A DNA stretch of 64,000 bases from Candidatus Heimdallarchaeota archaeon. Lineage in GTDB: Archaea > Asgardarchaeota > Heimdallarchaeia > Heimdallarchaeales > Heimdallarchaeaceae. Under the pieces are notes generated by a model. The model saw nothing but the letters and a program-made list of their open reading frames with translations. It did no database searches and had not been told where the DNA came from. This document shows positions 4,299 through 12,968 of the stretch, piece by piece. Both the position numbers and the translations under genes were made by a program. The stretch spans positions 32,001 through 96,000 of the forward strand of contig DXJF01000114.1 in the NCBI GenBank assembly GCA_019057375.1, written 5' to 3'. Numbering within the stretch: the stretch's first letter is position 1; every line of letters begins with the position of its first letter.

Positions 4299-4321
4299 TG
4301 GTGGGGCAGGGCGGATTCGAA
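4299..4321 (-). pseudogene. 3' fragment (T-loop to CCA) of a tRNA-Val(GAC) gene
   Basis: Reverse complement reads TTCGAAT CCGCC CTGCCCC A CCA. The acceptor strand is identical to that of tRNA-Val at 6335-6443. The T-stem strand CCGCC differs from that copy but pairs with GGCG of the 5' fragment at 8655-8708. Confidence 0.85.
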
Positions 4322-4360
4322 TAGACTCCTTTAAAATGAGGGAAAGGAAGAGTTTTAAGA

Positions 4361-6328
4361 TTGAACGGTAAAATGTACGAGATGAAAGAGCAAAGAATTC
4401 TAGTATTTATTCTGGTATTCTATCTTACTTTAAATGTAAATATAATTAAAGCCAATAGAACTGATACTTTTCTCTTAACAACCACAAACACCTCTATTCA
4501 GGATAATAAAGCATCAACAGTAAGTCAAACCAGTTCATTGTTCATAGATGATGACTCTGATTTCATCACACTTAACTTCCCTGGAAGTGGAACAAAAGGT
4601 GACCCCTACTTAATTGAAAACTATCAAATCATCACCACTGGTAGAGAAGCAGGTATTGATATTCAGAATACAAGTAAACATTTCATTATTAGAAATTGTA
4701 CTATTGAAACTGACAGTTGGGGTATTCGACTAAATGAAATAGCTCCTAATACAGCATCAATCATTGATAATGAGTTCATAGATAATGATTATACAGCTAT
4801 ATCCATCTACAATTCAATTGGAGTTACAATTTCCAATAATAAATTCAAAAATAATGACGAAGCATTATACTTAAGGAAATCTAGTTTCTTAACTATATCT
4901 AACAATACGTTTGAAGAGAATTGGCATGGTTTGCTCACATCTGGAACTGATTCATTAATTATAGAAGACAACTTTTTCTATTCAAATGTAATTGCAATAA
5001 GCATTACAGCAGTTACTGGTTTTTGTATCAAAAATAATGTTTTTAAAAATAATTCCAGATACGGAATGAATCTATATGCAACAGACAACACACTGGTTTC
5101 GAATAATACATGCAGTGATAGTGGATGGCGAGGAATCCTAGTTCGTCAGTCGATGTTTGTTGTTTTAAACCATAACACTCTTACTAATGATGGTATCCAC
5201 ATTGATTATTACTCGGTAGAATATGGAAGTTTTTCAAATAATCAAGTCAATTCTAGAATTCTTGGATTTTTCAAAAATAAGAATGACTTAGAACTAAAAG
5301 ACCCAATTTATGGTCAGTTAATTTTGTCAGACTGTAAAAAGGGAACCATTTCTAATCAAAATCTCTCAAACACAAGCATTGGTATAACATTGTACAATTG
5401 TGAGAAGACCACCATAATAAATAGTACTTGTAACAATAATGACGGTGATGGAATCCAAATTCATAATTCTGATGGATGTTCAGTGAGTAATAACACTTGC
5501 AATAATAATGATAATGGGATCAGTGTTGTAAACTCAAATCATTGTAATGTATCGAATAATATCTTACTTGGGAATTGGGAGAGCATAGAATTAACAAAAT
5601 CTAACTCAGCAGAAATTAATCTAAACAAATGTTCATTTAACAAAAACCATGGAATAACAATAATAAATTCCGAATATGGATTTGTAACTAATAACAATTG
5701 TTCAGATAATCATAACGATGGAATTCGAATACTAAGTTCAAATTATTTCGTGATTGCTAACAACTCGTGTATAAATAACAGAGAGGAGGCAATTTACTTA
5801 ATAACAACTATTGTTTCTATTGTTTACAATAATCTCTGCAAAAATAACACAAACGGGATATACATCGGACATTCAGGATTTAGTCCTATTCCTGAATTTG
5901 TACCCCCACCTCCAGATTCATATTCGGAAGTAATTTCTAATCATCTTGAAGAAAATAGTAAATATGGAGTTTATCTTAATCGACTGACTCAGGATAACAG
6001 CATACATCATAATTCCTTCATTAATAATGGTGAGGAAGGAATAGCACAAGCTTATGACACAGGATATAGAAATACTTGGTTTGATAAGAAGACAAATGAA
6101 GGTAATTTTTGGTCTGATATGGGGACCGGATCTTATGAAATTGCAGGAGAAGCAAATTCAATCGACAAATATCCGCTAATGGAACCCAAAATGATAGAAA
6201 TGCCGGAAATTCCATCAAATTGGCCAACTTACAGAACTAAATCTAATCCACAAATAATATGCATAGGAATAGTGACATTAGTTATTCTGAAACGTAGAAA
6301 ATTAAGATTTAAAAGAAGAAAAATCTAA
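4361..6328 (+). CDS. Secreted/surface right-handed parallel beta-helix (NosD/CASH-repeat) protein with C-terminal membrane anchor
   Basis: N-terminal hydrophobic signal; GSGTKGDPYLIENY; many IxxNxxxNNxxGI repeats; GNFWSD motif; C-terminal hydrophobic stretch followed by KRRK. Confidence 0.85.
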   Translation: MNGKMYEMKEQRILVFILVFYLTLNVNIIKANRTDTFLLTTTNTSIQDNKASTVSQTSSLFIDDDSDFITLNFPGSGTKGDPYLIENYQIITTGREAGIDIQNTSKHFIIRNCTIETDSWGIRLNEIAPNTASIIDNEFIDNDYTAISIYNSIGVTISNNKFKNNDEALYLRKSSFLTISNNTFEENWHGLLTSGTDSLIIEDNFFYSNVIAISITAVTGFCIKNNVFKNNSRYGMNLYATDNTLVSNNTCSDSGWRGILVRQSMFVVLNHNTLTNDGIHIDYYSVEYGSFSNNQVNSRILGFFKNKNDLELKDPIYGQLILSDCKKGTISNQNLSNTSIGITLYNCEKTTIINSTCNNNDGDGIQIHNSDGCSVSNNTCNNNDNGISVVNSNHCNVSNNILLGNWESIELTKSNSAEINLNKCSFNKNHGITIINSEYGFVTNNNCSDNHNDGIRILSSNYFVIANNSCINNREEAIYLITTIVSIVYNNLCKNNTNGIYIGHSGFSPIPEFVPPPPDSYSEVISNHLEENSKYGVYLNRLTQDNSIHHNSFINNGEEGIAQAYDTGYRNTWFDKKTNEGNFWSDMGTGSYEIAGEANSIDKYPLMEPKMIEMPEIPSNWPTYRTKSNPQIICIGIVTLVILKRRKLRFKRRKI

Positions 6329-6334
6329 AGAGTA

Positions 6335-6443
6335 TGGTGGGGCAGGCAAGATTCGAACTTGCGACTTCCTCCACTTTTTGTCTGTAGGTTTTCCACCTTG
6401 CAGATGTCAAGGAGGTATCATAGCCAAGCTAGATCACTGCCCC
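6335..6443 (-). tRNA. tRNA-Val(GAC) with 31-nt anticodon-loop intron, CCA encoded
   Basis: Acceptor GGGGCAG/CTGCCCC, anticodon stem CCTCC/GGAGG with TT-GAC, T-arm GCAAG-TTCGAAT-CTTGC. The intron (6375-6405, +/-1 nt) forms a hairpin with a relaxed BHB-like motif. Confidence 0.92.
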
Positions 6444-6477
6444 TTTTGCCGATAAGCTTTTCGCCTACTTTTCTTTC

Positions 6478-6504
6478 CTTGTTTTCTTTAAATGTTTTTT
6501 GTTA
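6478..6504 (-). promoter_or_regulatory. Putative BRE/TATA promoter of tRNA-Val
   Basis: Minus strand reads TAACAAAAAACATTTAAAG, about 45 nt upstream of the tRNA; 26/27 identical to 8744-8770. Confidence 0.6.
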
Positions 6505-6641
6505 TCCAGCTCTTTTAGTCAAGTAGACAAATTCGCAGAAAACATGGACAAGCTAGCCATATCCTTTGCAAGAAGTATAAACAGACAACAGAGAGGAAAA
6601 ACCCATCATAACAGAAGATTTTATCGAGTTTAAAAACCATT

Positions 6642-8594
6642 TTGTGGATATTGTTACTGAGTGAATTGGTCACACAAGCAACAAGTAAAACTCAAACAAT
6701 TATGTCTCCCTCGTCAAAGGGAGTGATGAGAAGTTATCAGGTGGTGCTCAAGTGTATAGACCAATCCCAAAGAGAAGAGATTAACCAGAGAATAAAAACA
6801 TTAGAAGAACAACAAAATCAGCTACTCACCCCTCAAGTTGTCAAGCAAGCAGTAGAACTCTATAGAACCAATCCCAAAGAAGGATTTTTCACACGCCAAC
6901 TCTGCAAAAAAGTAGGGAAAAGTCCAAATATTGCAGAAAGTGCTTTCCACTGGTTATACATAGCTATCAAAGGAAAGATAGATAAGGAGAAGAAAGTGGA
7001 AGGGTTATTGAGCTTTCTTTTGAAAAATCCTCAACAGCTGATAGAATGGCTGATTTTTGGTCGTTCCCCTTATACTGAGCGAAGTTTAGAAAACTATTGG
7101 AGACTAAAAAGAAAATATATCATTAACCTCCTCACCAGTACTAGATCCAAAACTGATTCCTATTGGAGAAAAAAACACAAACACAACTATTTTGCTGACT
7201 TCCTACAATTCAACGACTCCCTTCCTTTTACGTCACAAACTGATATCCTCCAAGCTCTTGATGATGCGCTGTTTTACTACAATCATGAATTTTCTCTCAT
7301 CCCACAGCTTACCAAAAATCAGAAAGCATTTCTGAAAAAACTCCAACTCTTAAAGAAGGAACAAAAAACTGTAGTACCTTTTCTCACTTCATGGATCAAA
7401 GGTCCTCAAACTTCTCGATGGAAAAGTCTCAAAACTCTCTCCGAACAACTAGCTTCAATTATAGGCAAACCTTCTCGAAAACTCTTTTCAGTAGTTAGAC
7501 TGATAATTGTTTTCACACTCTTTGATCATTACATGCAGAGTGTCCCTCAGTTAGTTAAGGCTCTCCCTATTGCTAATGTTGTTCCCCTACCATTTAAACG
7601 AAAAAAGAAAGGAAGATTACCAATCAAATTGCTAATGAAGAAAAACTATGTTATCACCCGTCAAGGGAATGCTCAAGAATTGACTGATCAGGTAAAAAAA
7701 CAAGGATGGACGGAATTTTGTTTTCCGCAAAAGGGAAAACAGCGACTAACAGCTCAAGTTCACTTTCCTAAAAAAGTAATAGGGTATATTGGAAATGGTG
7801 CACACTTCAAAGTCTTCCAAGTAAGTAGTGGACAAGCTCCTAGTTTCAAACCTAGGGTGGATGTGGTACTCGAAGGAGCTCATGCTTGCTTCCATTCATC
7901 CAAACTTCTTCACCGTTATCTTGCTAATGTTTCTGCAAAGAAAGCTTCTATTCTTGGAGTAGATATTAACCGCTTAGGACAGTATATGGTCGTGTTTAAC
8001 ACCCCTATCCCTCTGCCTCCAGATTTACTAAACTTAGCAGCACACTATAAACATCTCAGCACAAAAGTTCTGGATGAGTTGAACACAGGTTTTCTCCGTA
8101 AAAGAAAAGAGTATGATTCCCACGGGTGTTGTAAACTTAAAGGTGAACTTGACCGTGTTTATACTCGTCGCAGCCGCATCCTTCGCGAAATCACTTATCT
8201 CCTCCCCCACTTTCTTGCTGCAGTAATGGTGAAAAAGAAGTGTAAAGTGTTAAAGATTGAACGTTTAACTGTTGATCCTACCGGCACCAGAGGAGCTTTA
8301 GCTAAAGCTATTTACACCATGCCCGATAGTTTGTTCATTTACAAAAAAGCAGTGTGGTTAGCTTCTTTGGAGTTAGGGTATGATGTGCAGTTAGAAGCAG
8401 TTCACCCATATCATACCAGCACCATTCATTACGGATGTGGAGGTCTTCTTACTCGTCAAAAAGGTCAGTATGATGTTGCTCCTTGTAAAAAGTGTGGTCA
8501 AAAGGTCCCTACTCATGCTAATGCTGCCAAAAATATTGCTTCCCTTCAAGGTATCTTTCTTCCTCCCGATTCCTTCCCCTCAACGCACGTGTAG
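6642..8594 (+). CDS. tnpB: Large TnpB-like (IS200/IS605 OrfB, Cas12f-like) RNA-guided RuvC protein; likely start ATG 6702
   Basis: RuvC-I ILGVDINR, RuvC-II VLKIERL, VHPYHTSTIHYGCG...CKKCG zinc finger, RuvC-III region THANAAKNIA (Asp position is His). Confidence 0.85.
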   Translation: MWILLLSELVTQATSKTQTIMSPSSKGVMRSYQVVLKCIDQSQREEINQRIKTLEEQQNQLLTPQVVKQAVELYRTNPKEGFFTRQLCKKVGKSPNIAESAFHWLYIAIKGKIDKEKKVEGLLSFLLKNPQQLIEWLIFGRSPYTERSLENYWRLKRKYIINLLTSTRSKTDSYWRKKHKHNYFADFLQFNDSLPFTSQTDILQALDDALFYYNHEFSLIPQLTKNQKAFLKKLQLLKKEQKTVVPFLTSWIKGPQTSRWKSLKTLSEQLASIIGKPSRKLFSVVRLIIVFTLFDHYMQSVPQLVKALPIANVVPLPFKRKKKGRLPIKLLMKKNYVITRQGNAQELTDQVKKQGWTEFCFPQKGKQRLTAQVHFPKKVIGYIGNGAHFKVFQVSSGQAPSFKPRVDVVLEGAHACFHSSKLLHRYLANVSAKKASILGVDINRLGQYMVVFNTPIPLPPDLLNLAAHYKHLSTKVLDELNTGFLRKRKEYDSHGCCKLKGELDRVYTRRSRILREITYLLPHFLAAVMVKKKCKVLKIERLTVDPTGTRGALAKAIYTMPDSLFIYKKAVWLASLELGYDVQLEAVHPYHTSTIHYGCGGLLTRQKGQYDVAPCKKCGQKVPTHANAAKNIASLQGIFLPPDSFPSTHV

Positions 8595-8674
8595 GGGACC
8601 CATTCAAACGACGGTTAAATAGCCTCTGCAAGTTTAACCAAGTTTCATAACGTGCGCCGACTTCCTCCACGTCA
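8560..8674 (+). ncRNA. Candidate omega/reRNA of the TnpB-like gene (scaffold plus ~20-nt guide; 5' boundary unknown)
   Basis: Hairpins CCCCT(8576-80)/AGGGG(8593-97) and GGTTAAA/TTTAACC. The loop CGCACGT (8584-90) is complementary to ACGTGCG (8650-56), a pseudoknot next to the putative guide. Confidence 0.5.
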
Positions 8675-8708
8675 AGGAGGTATCATAGCCAGGCTAGATC
8701 ACTGCCCC
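8655..8708 (-). pseudogene. 5' fragment (acceptor to T-stem 5' strand) of an intron-less tRNA-Val(GAC) gene
   Basis: Reverse complement GGGGCAGTGATCTAGCCTGGCTATGATACCTCCTTGACGTGGAGGAAGTCGGCG, then unrelated sequence. Nearly identical to the exons of 6335-6443 but has no intron. Confidence 0.88.
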
Positions 8709-8743
8709 CTTTTATTGATAGGTCTTTCTTCGTTCTCTTCTTT

Positions 8744-8770
8744 CTTGTTTTCTTTAAATATTTTTTGTTA
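8744..8770 (-). promoter_or_regulatory. Duplicated tRNA-Val BRE/TATA promoter
   Basis: 26/27 identity to 6478-6504 and the same spacing (~45 nt) to the tRNA 5' end. Confidence 0.6.
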
Positions 8771-9057
8771 CAAATCTATGTTTCACCAATATTTGATATT
8801 TCTCTCTTTTTGGTTCATTAAAATCTTCTTTTTTTTCATTCTAATTATTAATTTGGTTTCTTCTAATTTGCTCGTTTTCTTTAATATTTCCCCCTTAAGA
8901 TACCATTTTGTCAAACTTTCGTTTTTTTCCGACTCAAAATCATATTCCAATCCTTGTTTCTTTTTTCAATATCACTAGGTAACATTTATAAAAACTTCAG
9001 CAGACAATCTATCAAAGGAATAGTGTTAAACTATTCTGTCCACTCGAGTGATTTATT

Positions 9058-11673
9058 ATGGATAAAAGTGTAGCAATGTCTTTAAAAATCGTTGGTTTTC
9101 TCCTTATTCTTACTTCTGCCTGGGTACCTATATATACAATTACATTTGATTCTACAACAACTGAACCTGAACCAATTATTCTTGTTGGTTCTCAGAGCAT
9201 TACTGGAGTCCTTCATAATGTATATTACGAAAATAATCTAGCATTTGTAGTAGATTCAGATACAGGGTTAAATATTGTAAATGTAACTGATGCAACAACA
9301 CCTGAGATTATTGGGACATACAATATTGCAAATGGGGCCAATGGTATATTCGTGAAGGATAACTATGCTTACATTGCAGATACGGTCACAGGATTACAGA
9401 TTGTTAATATTACTGACCCTACTTCACCAACACAAGTTGGTACATATAGTATTACAGGAGGGGCCACTGATGTATTTGTATCAGGAAATTATACTTACAT
9501 TGTAGATTCAACAATAGGGTTTCAAATACTAAATATTAGTGACCCAACAACACCAACACAAGAGGGTGTATTTAGTATTTCAGGGGAAATAAACAGTTTA
9601 ATTGTAAAAGATGAATTCGCATATATTGTAGATTCAGTAACTGGTTTACGTATTCTAAATATTACTGACGCAACTTTACCAAGCTTGGTTGCAACCTTCG
9701 ATGTAAACGAACCAGTATATGATGTAGCTGTTTTAGGAAGTTATGCTTACATTGTTGGTGAAAATATTGGCATACAAGTAGTAAATATAAGTAATCCTCA
9801 ATCTCCCGTTCTCACTAGTTCTTATTATATTGAAGGAAATGTCAATGGAATACATATTGAAAATGAACATGCATATATTGTTGATTCGACTGTTGGAATA
9901 CAAATTGTTTCAATTATAAATCCAGAAGAATTAACTATTGTAGGCTCACAGGAAATTACAGGAGAGATATATGGAATATTCGTAAAAGATGGATATGCAT
10001 ATGTTGTAGGATCAGATCTAGAAATCTTTATAGTAAGACCCAGATCTGAGTATGATTCATCAGGTACACTAGTACGAATCTTCGGTTTCAAAATCGATTA
10101 TAAAATGTTAACTTACAGTAGTGCAAACAACCTCGCTCAAGAACGATTCTTGGAAGCAGAAACACCCAGTAGTGTTGTTATTCTTGCTGCAGCTTTGTGG
10201 TTTATACTAATCTTTGCTACAGCTGCTGTTGTTTTGGGTCAGGTTTTTCAAAGTGGTGGTTTCAAATCGAGGGGCACTATTGCAGATATTGCTGCAGGAA
10301 TTCTTTTACTTTTGGCTCTGGTAGTTGCTATTTTATCAATGAGCAGATCAATGATTATAGCAGCAGAAAGATACCAAGCTTTAGTAACGGGACAAACTGC
10401 AGCCTCAACGGTGCCTCTTACGTTTAACCCGAATGATTCTACACCAGCTTACTTTGACATTGGTTTAACAGGTTCAGTTGGACCAGGATTCTACATATTC
10501 ACCATTGGAATATTAATGATGGTAACTGGTATCTTTCTACCAGTCAATTGGCAACAACCAACCAGCTCCAAAATGTCAAGAAGAATTGGTGATACTGGTG
10601 TTCTTAGATGGGTTAAAAACATAGCATCATTAAGATTAACTACTTATGTTACTAGAAGATTATTAACACTTATTCCTCTCTTCATTGCAATATGTGTGAT
10701 GACATTTGTAATGGTAAACGGAATGGGTGACCCAGTTGCATTATTGCTACTTGGAAAACAAAGAGTAACGGAACAAGATAGGATAAATCTTACTAAAAAA
10801 CTTGGTCTAGATCAGCCCATTTATATTCAATTCGTTACTTGGTTCTATAACCTTATACGAGGGGACATGGGTATAAGTTTCCAATCAGGTCAATCAATTA
10901 ATAATATGATTGGTGGATTAATTTGGGAAACTTTAAAGCTTCAGTTAGCATCATTTGTGCTAGCTTTGCTTATTTCGATACCTTTGGGTGTTTTAGCAGC
11001 AAAGAATCAAAATACTTGGATTGACTCAGCTGCAAGTTCTTTCGCACTCTTAGGTCTCTCAATGCCAATTTTTGTGTTTGGTTTATTAATGATTTATATA
11101 TTCAGCGGATATGGTTTAGGATGGTTCCCAGCTGCAAAAGCTCACCGAATACCAGCGCCCACGCCTGTGTTTAGTCAGACGAACTGGCAATTATTCTGGT
11201 CAGGGCAGTGGGGAGGTGTTGGTGGATTTTGGAATAATGTAGGTGTAAGATTAGGGGATTCACTCCTTCATATGGCTTTACCAACTATAACTTTGACATT
11301 TGCTTTCTTAGCCCTATATACTAGGTTAGTTAGGGCAACAATGCTTGAAGTTCTTAGACAAGATTATGTCTTATCTGCAAGAGCAAATGGAATATCTGAA
11401 AGAACCATTACATGGAGACATGCATTCAGAAATGTTTTGATCCCTGTAGTAACCTATGTTGGGTTGTTTATGGCTACAGCTTTAGCTGGAGCTCCAATTA
11501 CTGAAACACTCTTCACATGGCCGGGTTTAGGATTCAAATATGTAGGTGCGGTGCTTCTTTTGGACTTCCCGATGGTCTTAGGTACGACGGCGATTCTGAC
11601 TTTACTTATCTTACTAGGTAACTTGATAACAGATATTGCTTATGTTGCGGTAGATCCGCGTATAGAACTATGA
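9058..11673 (+). CDS. dppB: Peptide/nickel ABC permease (DppB/OppB) fused to an N-terminal LVIVD-repeat beta-propeller
   Basis: About seven 42-aa repeats (AYIVDSxxGLxIVNITDPxxP); C-terminal RRLLTLIPL, GLDQPIYIQF, QDYVLSARANG (EAA loop) and DPRIEL. Confidence 0.85.
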   Translation: MDKSVAMSLKIVGFLLILTSAWVPIYTITFDSTTTEPEPIILVGSQSITGVLHNVYYENNLAFVVDSDTGLNIVNVTDATTPEIIGTYNIANGANGIFVKDNYAYIADTVTGLQIVNITDPTSPTQVGTYSITGGATDVFVSGNYTYIVDSTIGFQILNISDPTTPTQEGVFSISGEINSLIVKDEFAYIVDSVTGLRILNITDATLPSLVATFDVNEPVYDVAVLGSYAYIVGENIGIQVVNISNPQSPVLTSSYYIEGNVNGIHIENEHAYIVDSTVGIQIVSIINPEELTIVGSQEITGEIYGIFVKDGYAYVVGSDLEIFIVRPRSEYDSSGTLVRIFGFKIDYKMLTYSSANNLAQERFLEAETPSSVVILAAALWFILIFATAAVVLGQVFQSGGFKSRGTIADIAAGILLLLALVVAILSMSRSMIIAAERYQALVTGQTAASTVPLTFNPNDSTPAYFDIGLTGSVGPGFYIFTIGILMMVTGIFLPVNWQQPTSSKMSRRIGDTGVLRWVKNIASLRLTTYVTRRLLTLIPLFIAICVMTFVMVNGMGDPVALLLLGKQRVTEQDRINLTKKLGLDQPIYIQFVTWFYNLIRGDMGISFQSGQSINNMIGGLIWETLKLQLASFVLALLISIPLGVLAAKNQNTWIDSAASSFALLGLSMPIFVFGLLMIYIFSGYGLGWFPAAKAHRIPAPTPVFSQTNWQLFWSGQWGGVGGFWNNVGVRLGDSLLHMALPTITLTFAFLALYTRLVRATMLEVLRQDYVLSARANGISERTITWRHAFRNVLIPVVTYVGLFMATALAGAPITETLFTWPGLGFKYVGAVLLLDFPMVLGTTAILTLLILLGNLITDIAYVAVDPRIEL

Positions 11674-11690
11674 TAAACAGGTGATATGAG

Positions 11691-12968
11691 TTGCAAAAAG
11701 CTAAGAAAACACAAAAAGGGTCTTTTTCTAAAAGACTTGATAATTACTTAGTGGAAAAAAGGTTACCAAGATCTATGTCTTGGGCTGGAGCACTCGCTGT
11801 GCTCTGGCAGCACTACTACCTTAACTATATCATACAATTCTTAGGGATTATCTTAATATTTGGAATTGGATTACCATATGGTCTTAGAGCATTCGGAGTT
11901 TCCATGAGTGTAGACGGTGTTCGACTAGGACCAATTGGATCTCCATTCGCATATCTTATCTATATAGGAATCGTAGCATTAGTATGGGTTGGTGTAAAGG
12001 TAGGTTGGAGATATTACCAGAAGGTAACTGGTAAGAAAGAAATGATTATTGCAAAAGATGGAACTCTTCGAGAAAGAAGTCCTTCTCAATGGACACTTGT
12101 TTGGAGAAGATATAAGAAAAACAAAGTTGCAGTCTTATCTGCTACTCTCGTAGTTGGAATCACAATTCTGGCAATTACTTATCCAATCTTGATGCCCTTT
12201 AGCCCTGTAGGAACTTCCCCCCTGTTTGATGCATGGAATGGAGGTGGTTCTTTAGCTAATCCAAATCTAAAGTATCCTGGAGGAACAGATATTCTTGGAA
12301 GAGATGAATTCTCAAGGTTACTTGCTGGTAGTGAAGTTTCCTTAACTGTAGGATTATTCTCAACTGTGATGTCTGTTCTAATAGGAGTAACATTAGGTGC
12401 CCTTGCTGGATACTATAGAGGATGGACTGAAGAAATTATTATGAGAATTACAGACATGTTTCTCGCTCTACCATTTCTTGTAATAGCAATTCTAGCAGTT
12501 TCATTCATCAGAAGAGGAAGATTAGTTTTTTTGAGACGGATACCACAATCAATAGTTATTATTATTGTACTAGGAATATTTGGTTGGGCAGGACTATGTA
12601 GGTTAGTCACAGCTAACACGAAGCAGATTTACAACTTAGATTATGTAAATGCTGCAAGAGTATTAGGAGCAAGTAATCGGAGAATCATTTTAGTCCATAT
12701 ACTACCGAATATTTTAGCTCCTATCATTGTTATTGCCACAATATCCATTGCAGGAGGAATTCTCTCAGAAGCAGGATTAACCTTTTTAGGTTTAGGAAGT
12801 CCAACAACGATTTCTTGGGGACAGATGGTTAATGAAGCACAAACGGTTCTTAAAACGAACCCAGAATTAGCGCTTCTACCAGGATTCGCAATATTCTTTG
12901 TAGTACTGGCATTCAACTTGCTAGGAGACGCATTAAGAGATGCGCTAGATCCAAGATTAAGAGAGTGA
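11691..12968 (+). CDS. dppC: Peptide ABC permease DppC/OppC
   Basis: GTDILGRDEFSRL, DYVNAARVLGAS, HILPN, FNLLGDALRDALDPR. Confidence 0.9.
   Translation: MQKAKKTQKGSFSKRLDNYLVEKRLPRSMSWAGALAVLWQHYYLNYIIQFLGIILIFGIGLPYGLRAFGVSMSVDGVRLGPIGSPFAYLIYIGIVALVWVGVKVGWRYYQKVTGKKEMIIAKDGTLRERSPSQWTLVWRRYKKNKVAVLSATLVVGITILAITYPILMPFSPVGTSPLFDAWNGGGSLANPNLKYPGGTDILGRDEFSRLLAGSEVSLTVGLFSTVMSVLIGVTLGALAGYYRGWTEEIIMRITDMFLALPFLVIAILAVSFIRRGRLVFLRRIPQSIVIIIVLGIFGWAGLCRLVTANTKQIYNLDYVNAARVLGASNRRIILVHILPNILAPIIVIATISIAGGILSEAGLTFLGLGSPTTISWGQMVNEAQTVLKTNPELALLPGFAIFFVVLAFNLLGDALRDALDPRLRE

Follow-up and report, generated by a model that had tools for sequence, protein, structure and literature searches.

An IS607-family TnpB element in a split tRNA-Val gene of a Heimdallarchaeota archaeon, with a predicted guide matching the element-free allele

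The 64,000-nt stretch of Candidatus Heimdallarchaeota DNA analysed here (the window; contig C65:32001-96000 of a 3.47-Mb genome in 159 contigs, 89% complete) has a G+C content of ~34% and contains a tRNA-Val(GAC) gene that is split by a 4.3-kb inserted block, with a tnpB-like gene at its right end. The mobile part of this block is a tnpA-deleted, left-end-degenerate, non-autonomous insertion sequence (IS) of the IS607 family of Heimdallarchaeaceae. We regard it as firm that this is a TnpB/omega-RNA element with an Asp-Glu-His (D-E-H) RuvC site, and that its predicted guide corresponds to the element-free allele of the tRNA gene in which it sits. We consider it probable that it serves homing, in company with a spare tRNA-Val that would resist the guide. 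The production of the RNA, cleavage by the His-bearing enzyme, the target-adjacent motif (TAM), and homing rather than a chance insertion with compensation are the parts of this interpretation that we infer.

The 5' part of the split gene (54 nt, 8655-8708, reverse strand) was recognised from the intact gene of sister genomes as belonging to an intronless tRNA-Val(GAC), and beyond it lie the native upstream region (8709-8770 onward) and then a gene for an ATP-binding cassette (ABC) permease. The 3' remnant of the same resident gene (4299-4321, reverse strand) comprises the T-loop, the 3' strands of the T-stem and of the acceptor stem, and the CCA; these 23 nt are identical to the 3' end of the intact tRNA gene of sister genome G014, with the same PALP-enzyme gene directly before. 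The order PALP-enzyme gene, tRNA-Val, upstream region, ABC-permease gene is that of the orthologous locus, at which nine sister genomes possess an intact, intronless tRNA-Val and no element, G014 being 98% identical over 846 nt of the right flank. Comparison with the empty sites of G014, G018, G024, G015, G030, G027, and G028 places the borders of the block at 4322 and 8656 (forward strand), at a single point of the tRNA-Val gene, its right end being the right end of the IS. The left junction is irregular, 1-3 nt short of canonical, and no canonical left end was detected there by nhmmer. Position 4322 was considered as a second left end, its first six bases being those of the left end of another copy (k2), and was rejected, as the hidden Markov model (HMM) of left ends is silent there at E<10. 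The model is also silent, at the same cut-off, at 6520 and at the left junction of copy k5, described below. One variant of the orthologous gene was noted in genome G029 (L046, G029:C76:1-2512), where the T-loop of tRNA-Val(GAC) carries an insertion of ~30 nt, probably a non-canonical intron, and the gene is missed by ARAGORN.

The block consists of a gene for a NosD-like protein, a spare tRNA, ~100 nt of the spare's own upstream region, and the IS, and it encodes no tyrosine integrase. The first of these is a cargo gene for a right-handed beta-helix protein (4361-6328, forward strand; Pfam NosD, E 9e-44; Beta_helix, E 1e-42), missing between the PALP gene and the tRNA in G014; the possibility that this upstream open reading frame (ORF) of 655 amino acids represents a tandem second copy of the IS was rejected with its identification as the NosD/beta-helix gene. 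The spare is an intact tRNA-Val(GAC) gene (6335-6443, reverse strand) with an intron of 31-33 nt after the anticodon and a different T-stem. It scores 49.3 bits against the Rfam tRNA model, folds into a cloverleaf with an intron hairpin, and is found by ARAGORN with the intron option and missed without it. Introns are present in many tRNA genes of this genome, and CCA is encoded. The spare and the split gene share a diverged direct repeat covering the tRNA 5' half and ~60 nt upstream (left copy 6406-6505, right copy 8671-8770), 95% identical in the tRNA part and 74% upstream. An explanation of this repeat by a 2.1-kb element with a long target duplication, or by a Campbell-type integration, is rejected, because the right repeat is entirely G014-like and the left one belongs entirely to another type, and because the tRNA 3' remnant is found another 2.2 kb to the left. 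A secondarily deleted state is presented by genome G023, which possesses the same left junction and the NosD gene, the IS being gone. Its tRNA (L043/L050, G023:C13) consists of the spare's 3' exon and intron joined to a host-type 5' half, a hybrid that recombination between the two tRNA repeats would give.

As to the affiliation of the IS, its copies are present in all 24 of the 24 genomes of the genus and in both genomes (2/2) of a second genus, this genome alone having 11 at the protein level, and the named homologues of the tnpB-like protein are all from Candidatus Heimdallarchaeota/Heimdallarchaeaceae. Pairwise DNA comparison delimits a shared unit from ~90 nt 5' of the ORF to 65 nt beyond the last codon, with a copy-to-copy nucleotide identity of 72-84%, indicating that the paralogues are old; some of them contain stop codons. 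Several loci in sister genomes extend to the left into an ORF of 186-197 amino acids with MerR and Resolvase domains, which scores 170 bits against the NCBI IS607 transposase model NF033518 (cut-off 110). Full copies with an intact tnpA (L016, L018, L022) are ~2.73 kb long, and the same tnpA-tnpB gene order is seen in two remote relatives. The window copy is the tnpA-deleted form, ~2.1 kb, in which a relic of the tnpA 3' end is recognised at ~6545-6605 by alignment to the 3' ends of the intact tnpA genes of the full copies. A TATA-like box (6630-6637) follows the relic, and the tnpB promoter block is conserved in all copies. The left end is laid out as AC, a 2-nt core, T, and then a conserved block of 45 nt, and the right end has GTG plus a 2-nt core as its terminus, usually with T next. 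The left core is always the same as the right-end core (CG/CG, TG/TG, CT/CT), as should be left by a serine recombinase crossing over at the dinucleotide. A covariance-model search further reveals derivatives of 320-360 bp resembling miniature inverted-repeat transposable elements (MITEs; G000:C81:24419-24739; G000:C65:8486-8843, outside the window; G000:C49:36430-36733; G000:C40:1-143), which have a canonical left end preceded by ACCG, then a TATA-like promoter, a conserved non-coding stretch of ~150 nt, and the full scaffold with the right end, but no ORF. By their make-up these resemble stand-alone guide-RNA units and could use TnpB in trans. The three remote relatives with fetched flanks are IS607-like, and none of the three adjoins a tRNA. 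Two observations may be added here. A 17-nt match between 6629-45 and 8895-911, at the same offset, falls within two promoter-like boxes, and in one remote relative (L086; GCA_046759345.1, JBHICA010000004.1:91198-98246; 35% identity), whose IS607 tnpA is intact, a NosD/beta-helix gene is again found in the vicinity, maybe by coincidence.

The tnpB-like gene (6726-8594, forward strand, open from 6642) encodes a D-E-H RuvC triad and an HxxC...CxxC zinc finger. Read from a TTG, the ORF 6642-8594 would give 650 amino acids. As paralogues and homologues align only from the conserved start, ATG 6726, and as residues 1-25 are disordered in the AlphaFold2 model (built on 30 homologues; predicted local distance difference test score, pLDDT, 84), the likely product has 622. 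The modelled protein has a TnpB/Cas12f-type fold, in which the RuvC domain is split and a zinc finger separates RuvC-II from RuvC-III. Foldseek matches it to Cas12f and TnpB structures (E 6e-10 to 2e-6, the top matches reaching to 1e-7), ISFba1 TnpB and ISDra2 TnpB included, with Fanzor lower, and of the solved structures, CnCas12f1 aligns with the last 120 residues (E 4e-5). Family models respond more faintly: the Pfam Cas12f1-like TNB domain remains below threshold (22.9 bits versus a cut-off of 26.3), many homologues carrying PF07282, and NCBIfam gives faint Cas12f2 and TnpB matches. An exhaustive profile-free search of 1.8 billion cluster representatives found only 156 relatives.

Instead of the canonical Asp-Glu-Asp triad, which is not present, the active site reads Asp-Glu-His, the RuvC-I Asp codon being at 7962-64, the RuvC-II Glu codon at 8259-61, and the His codon at 8514-16. 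The His, within the motif THANAA, takes the position of the catalytic Asp in alignments to CnCas12f1 and to a TnpB chain. In 36 remote relatives of a mean identity of 21%, D441 (RuvC-I), E540 (RuvC-II), and the three zinc-finger Cys are invariant, and H625 is kept in 35. The C-terminus and the zinc finger are complete, and the paralogues of this genome evolve under purifying selection (ratio of non-synonymous to synonymous substitution rates, dN/dS, 0.12-0.19 at dS 0.55-1.5). A conserved Asp-to-His change at RuvC-III has been described in other TnpB branches (‘RIIIr’), and was taken there to mean that the site is rearranged and probably active (Altae-Tran et al., 2023, PMC10691335). Given the retention of the His, the low dN/dS, and these published branches, the His appears to be a clade-specific trait and not a lesion.

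The putative omega-RNA scaffold of this protein occupies 8575-8656 (forward strand). It comprises a hairpin over the stop codon (P1, 8575-80 with 8593-98), two nested helices (P3, 8606-09 with 8642-45; P2, 8613-19 with 8633-39), and a pseudoknot of 7 bp in which the P1 loop pairs with the element's final 7 nt (8584-90 with 8650-56). Over 32 copies, 94.9% of the cells are paired, falling to 24-46% in slid controls, and compensatory double changes occur in 11 pairs versus 1.9 in shuffles, with none of 500 shuffles as high. The pseudoknot covaries in six of its seven pairs, the core dinucleotide included, and is maintained with different letters, through compensatory changes, in relatives at 33% protein identity. 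The covariance model (R1) detects 13 scaffold copies in the genome, and comparison of the scaffold with Rfam matched no known family. The terminus of the scaffold is constant in every copy, and the flanks just past the last paired base are mutually unrelated (30 loci), which is the geometry of a TnpB omega-RNA with a flank-derived guide. A pseudoknotted scaffold would thus be encoded by the element's last 80 nt, with transcription running on into the flank.

The predicted guide, the first ~20 nt of the flank (8657-8676, forward strand), covers the T-stem 5' strand, the variable loop, and the anticodon arm of tRNA-Val. The empty allele of G014 matches all 20 nt perfectly, with AACCG directly before. 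No other site within five mismatches was found in the genome, where the sole perfect target is the element's own flank. As to the TAM, the flank to the left is AC plus the 2-nt core (CG, TG, or CT) at 11 of the 12 recognisable left ends, and in the empty site of k2 the AC plus core is target-derived, suggesting ACYG as the predicted motif, which is AACCG here, at the T-loop/T-stem border; a target preference of the recombinase would leave an identical pattern. The AC plus core also stands in the empty site of k5, which reads CCAC-TG. For IS607 elements of bacteria, experiments placed the TAM adjacent to the left end (Ren et al., 2024, PMC11061315). The spare would escape this guide: at the TAM position it reads ACTT, base 1 of the guide differs, bases 2-14 match, and the intron then ends the match, leaving more than five mismatches.

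Much of this had been anticipated in an earlier note made from the letters of the window. It proposed a TnpB relative with the RuvC-I Asp, the RuvC-II Glu, and a His at RuvC-III, and fold, Foldseek matches, and alignment to Cas12f/TnpB bear this out, all three residues being found at the motifs indicated. The pairing of 8584-90 with 8650-56 is exact. The flanking tRNA-Val fragment is identified as such by the intact gene of sister genomes, and the uninterrupted allele that the guide was thought to address indeed exists in sister species. The absence of TnpA nearby is correct for this copy, with its tnpA relic. Homologues share the scaffold, with the same end and unrelated flanks after it, as well as the His, and the outcome that the note named as refuting, scaffolds that end elsewhere, was thus not observed. 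Two details needed correction. The guide was started at 8655, and since the last CG pairs in the pseudoknot, the scaffold ends at 8656 and the guide starts at 8657. The TAM was given as TTCGAA[C], which is in the wrong register relative to the left-flank AC plus core. The note also overlooked the 4.3-kb extent of the insertion and the spare tRNA within it.

A second tRNA gene in the same genome shows a comparable arrangement. Copy k5 (G000:C145:90645-94346, L005/L088) splits tRNA-Val(CAC) after the anticodon; the tRNA 3' part is found 1.7 kb upstream, and 100 nt before tnpB stands a complete tRNA-Val(CAC) gene that represents the other allele type. Its block of 3.7 kb consists of two small reverse-strand ORFs, this complete tRNA, and tnpB, flanked by a 5-bp duplication, and in sister genomes the locus has an intact tRNA gene of either allele type. 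In distant subfamilies (39-45% identity) the right end abuts a piece of a tRNA at 10 of 14 loci, the pieces being from tRNA-Cys in five genomes (L077, L078, L079, L073, L083), tRNA-Leu in three (L008, L032, L066), and a tRNA read as Pro(UGG) and tRNA-Ser in one each (also L067 and L084), and a complete tRNA of the same kind is found nearby, with at least 5 differences from the flank in 20 positions. Only ~20 nt of tRNA-like sequence are left beside the right end at these loci, and these are kept across species, the adjacent spacer not. The first 20 nt of the flank are 77% (Cys) and 72% (Leu) identical between genomes, the scaffold being 59% (Cys) and 42% (Leu) identical, and the next 40 nt are 31-33% identical ungapped and ~50% gapped, which is background for A+T-rich DNA. 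Conservation limited to a guide-length flank is what selection on the guide would produce. Overall, with orthologous groups counted once, six independent tRNA sites in the genus (two Val, and Leu, Cys, Pro, and Ser) are found among ~40 distinct insertion sites, even though tRNA genes make up ~0.1% of the genome. Separately, the D-arm of the resident tRNA-Cys genes in the genomes of the tRNA-Cys loci differs in spelling from the flank, and at L033 and L070 the first 17 nt of the flank are common to both and recur, slightly changed, ~110 nt downstream of the right end, so that a piece of an unrecognised small RNA gene could be involved.

From these data the following scheme may be proposed. Following the example of other TnpB systems, the ribonucleoprotein (RNP) of TnpB and its omega-RNA would cut element-free tRNA-Val alleles on other copies of the chromosome or on incoming DNA. 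The occupied allele would then serve as the template for homologous repair, by which the whole 4.3-kb block would be copied in. The spare tRNA-Val(GAC) of the block, escaping the guide via TAM, base 1, and intron, would keep the host alive. By this analogy the RNP is likely active and favours the retention or spread of the occupied allele, the spare likely making the insertion harmless to its carrier.

A number of facts weigh against homing. A copy without tnpA and without a recognisable left end cannot excise, and an element-free allele would be encountered only via DNA exchange or polyploid heterozygosity. The paralogues are old, and the activity may be a thing of the past. The loss of the IS from G023 demonstrates that retention is not absolute. 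The left junction of the block is non-canonical. We found in the literature no biochemical test of a His at the third RuvC position of a TnpB. Finally, 27 of the 29 flanks in the main, younger subfamily are not at tRNAs.

The strongest of the rival explanations, which we nevertheless regard as unlikely, is that an IS607 element landed in tRNA-Val incidentally, that a second tRNA-Val, already present or acquired later, provided compensation, and that the TnpB is a decaying relic with no role at tRNAs. Several of the facts just listed would agree with such a history, namely the missing tnpA and left end, the age of the copies, some with stop codons, and the loss of the element from G023 without harm; moreover, in IS607/IS605 copies a flank is the ‘guide’ by construction. 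A decaying relic, however, is not what the gene looks like, with its intact ORF, purifying selection, and conserved catalytic residues and scaffold pairs. Also against incidental insertion stand the occurrence of a split tRNA together with a divergent complete tRNA of the same anticodon at six independent sites, and the conservation of the guide-length flank alone in two old orthologous groups.

The second rival, also raised in the earlier note, is a nuclease-dead RNA-guided binder of the TldR type that would regulate or mark the tRNA gene or its promoter. The replaced RuvC-III Asp and the immobility of this copy could be taken in its favour, as could the conservation of the guide across species in the Cys and Leu groups, which resembles a fixed regulatory guide. 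Published TldR proteins and inactivated TnpBs, however, have lost several catalytic residues or the whole of RuvC-III (Altae-Tran et al., 2023, PMC10691335), whereas here the Asp and Glu are invariant, the His is conserved and not decaying, the C-terminus and the zinc finger are complete, and dN/dS is low; His-bearing branches have been read as probably active, the family is that of a transposon present in many copies, with TnpA and MITE-like derivatives, and the only perfect target in the genome is the element's own flank. We thus consider a binder of this type improbable. The third rival, which we consider very improbable, is that the two tRNA pieces (8655-8708 and 4299-4321) continue to be transcribed and are ligated in trans, so that the insertion would in effect be a giant intervening sequence. 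In its favour, neither piece is damaged in sequence, the native upstream region of the 5' piece is preserved, and archaea are known to possess split and intron-rich tRNA genes (Sugahara et al., 2012, PMC3293823). Against it, the 3' piece is a mere 23 nt directly after a protein gene, with no promoter or leader of its own, no complementary leader sequences are seen, 1-3 nt are missing at the junction, and the complete tRNA-Val(GAC) that lies between makes such a rescue unnecessary.

Our search of the literature found no paper linking TnpB guides to tRNA genes, and the comparisons that can be made are with systems that share parts of the arrangement. The closest are the IS607 TnpB systems with their omega-RNA (right-end element RNA, reRNA), such as ISFba1 (Ren et al., 2024, PMC11061315), and the ‘restorative homing’ model for IS605/IS607. 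Shared are the tnpA-tnpB order of the full copies, the TnpB/Cas12f fold, an RNA over the 3' end of the gene that stops at the right end, a guide from the flank, and, by prediction here, a TAM at the left end. The protein described here is larger, however, at ~620-650 amino acids versus ~390-400, its RuvC triad is D-E-H, its scaffold has no Rfam family, the inferred TAM is ACYG, and the sites include tRNA genes beside a divergent spare. The RIIIr branches (Altae-Tran et al., 2023, PMC10691335) share the conserved His, and some of them are archaeal and linked to serine recombinases, but tRNA-derived guides were not reported there. A parallel of a different sort is the tRNA-Thr locus of Caldiarchaeum subterraneum, where a multi-copy element of ~1.9 kb lies between a 5' tRNA fragment and a complete tRNA with an intron and the same anticodon, and where the authors saw the integration of mobile elements as the likely cause of disrupted tRNA genes and of the gain of introns (Sugahara et al., 2012, PMC3293823); that element was not identified as TnpB or IS607, and a guide logic was not considered. 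Elements of the SSV and pNOB8 types, which are borne by integrases, likewise target tRNA genes, with partial duplication of the tRNA at their ends and a functional tRNA kept. In the present case there is no tyrosine integrase, the repeats are diverged, the role of the functional tRNA falls to a separate, whole gene of another allele type instead of a regenerated hybrid, and the block terminates on one side in an IS607 right end. With TldR proteins the present one shares descent from TnpB, the changed RuvC-III residue, and, for this copy, immobility, but differs in having the catalytic Asp and Glu, the full C-terminus, a transposon context, and many copies with variable guides.

Beyond the single locus, we put forward tentatively, as a possible but doubtful generalisation, that this TnpB clade constitutes a natural cleave-and-rescue drive specialised on tRNA genes, in which a guide under selection would cut the common allele and a linked spare, recoded or intron-bearing, would resist. 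If this is true, tRNA genes in Asgard archaea would be pushed toward compensatory recoding of stems and intron gain, providing a concrete selective agent for both in archaeal tRNA genes, and the old proposal that tRNA introns protect against mobile DNA would become directly testable. The clade would then represent a natural RNA-guided selfish element set against an essential conserved gene, with a resistant replacement, following the logic of engineered cleave-and-rescue drives. Even by the conservative reading, the locus offers a clean, datable case of tRNA disruption and rescue, with empty, occupied, and secondarily deleted alleles in sister species. Should the proposed mechanism hold, the data would also add a compact pseudoknotted scaffold of ~80 nt and a predicted 4-nt TAM from the Asgard archaea, the closest known archaeal relatives of eukaryotes, and testing the enzyme would show whether an Asp-Glu-His RuvC cuts DNA in TnpB.

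Two minor observations concern the right side of the locus. A 108-amino acid ORF with a GTG start (8652-8978) overlaps the tRNA fragment and the A+T-rich upstream region, matches no family, and is probably not a gene. Further to the right, an ORF of 871 amino acids (9058-11673) combines LVIVD/beta-propeller repeats with an OppB-type ABC permease domain, and a gene for an OppC-type permease is next (11691-12968).

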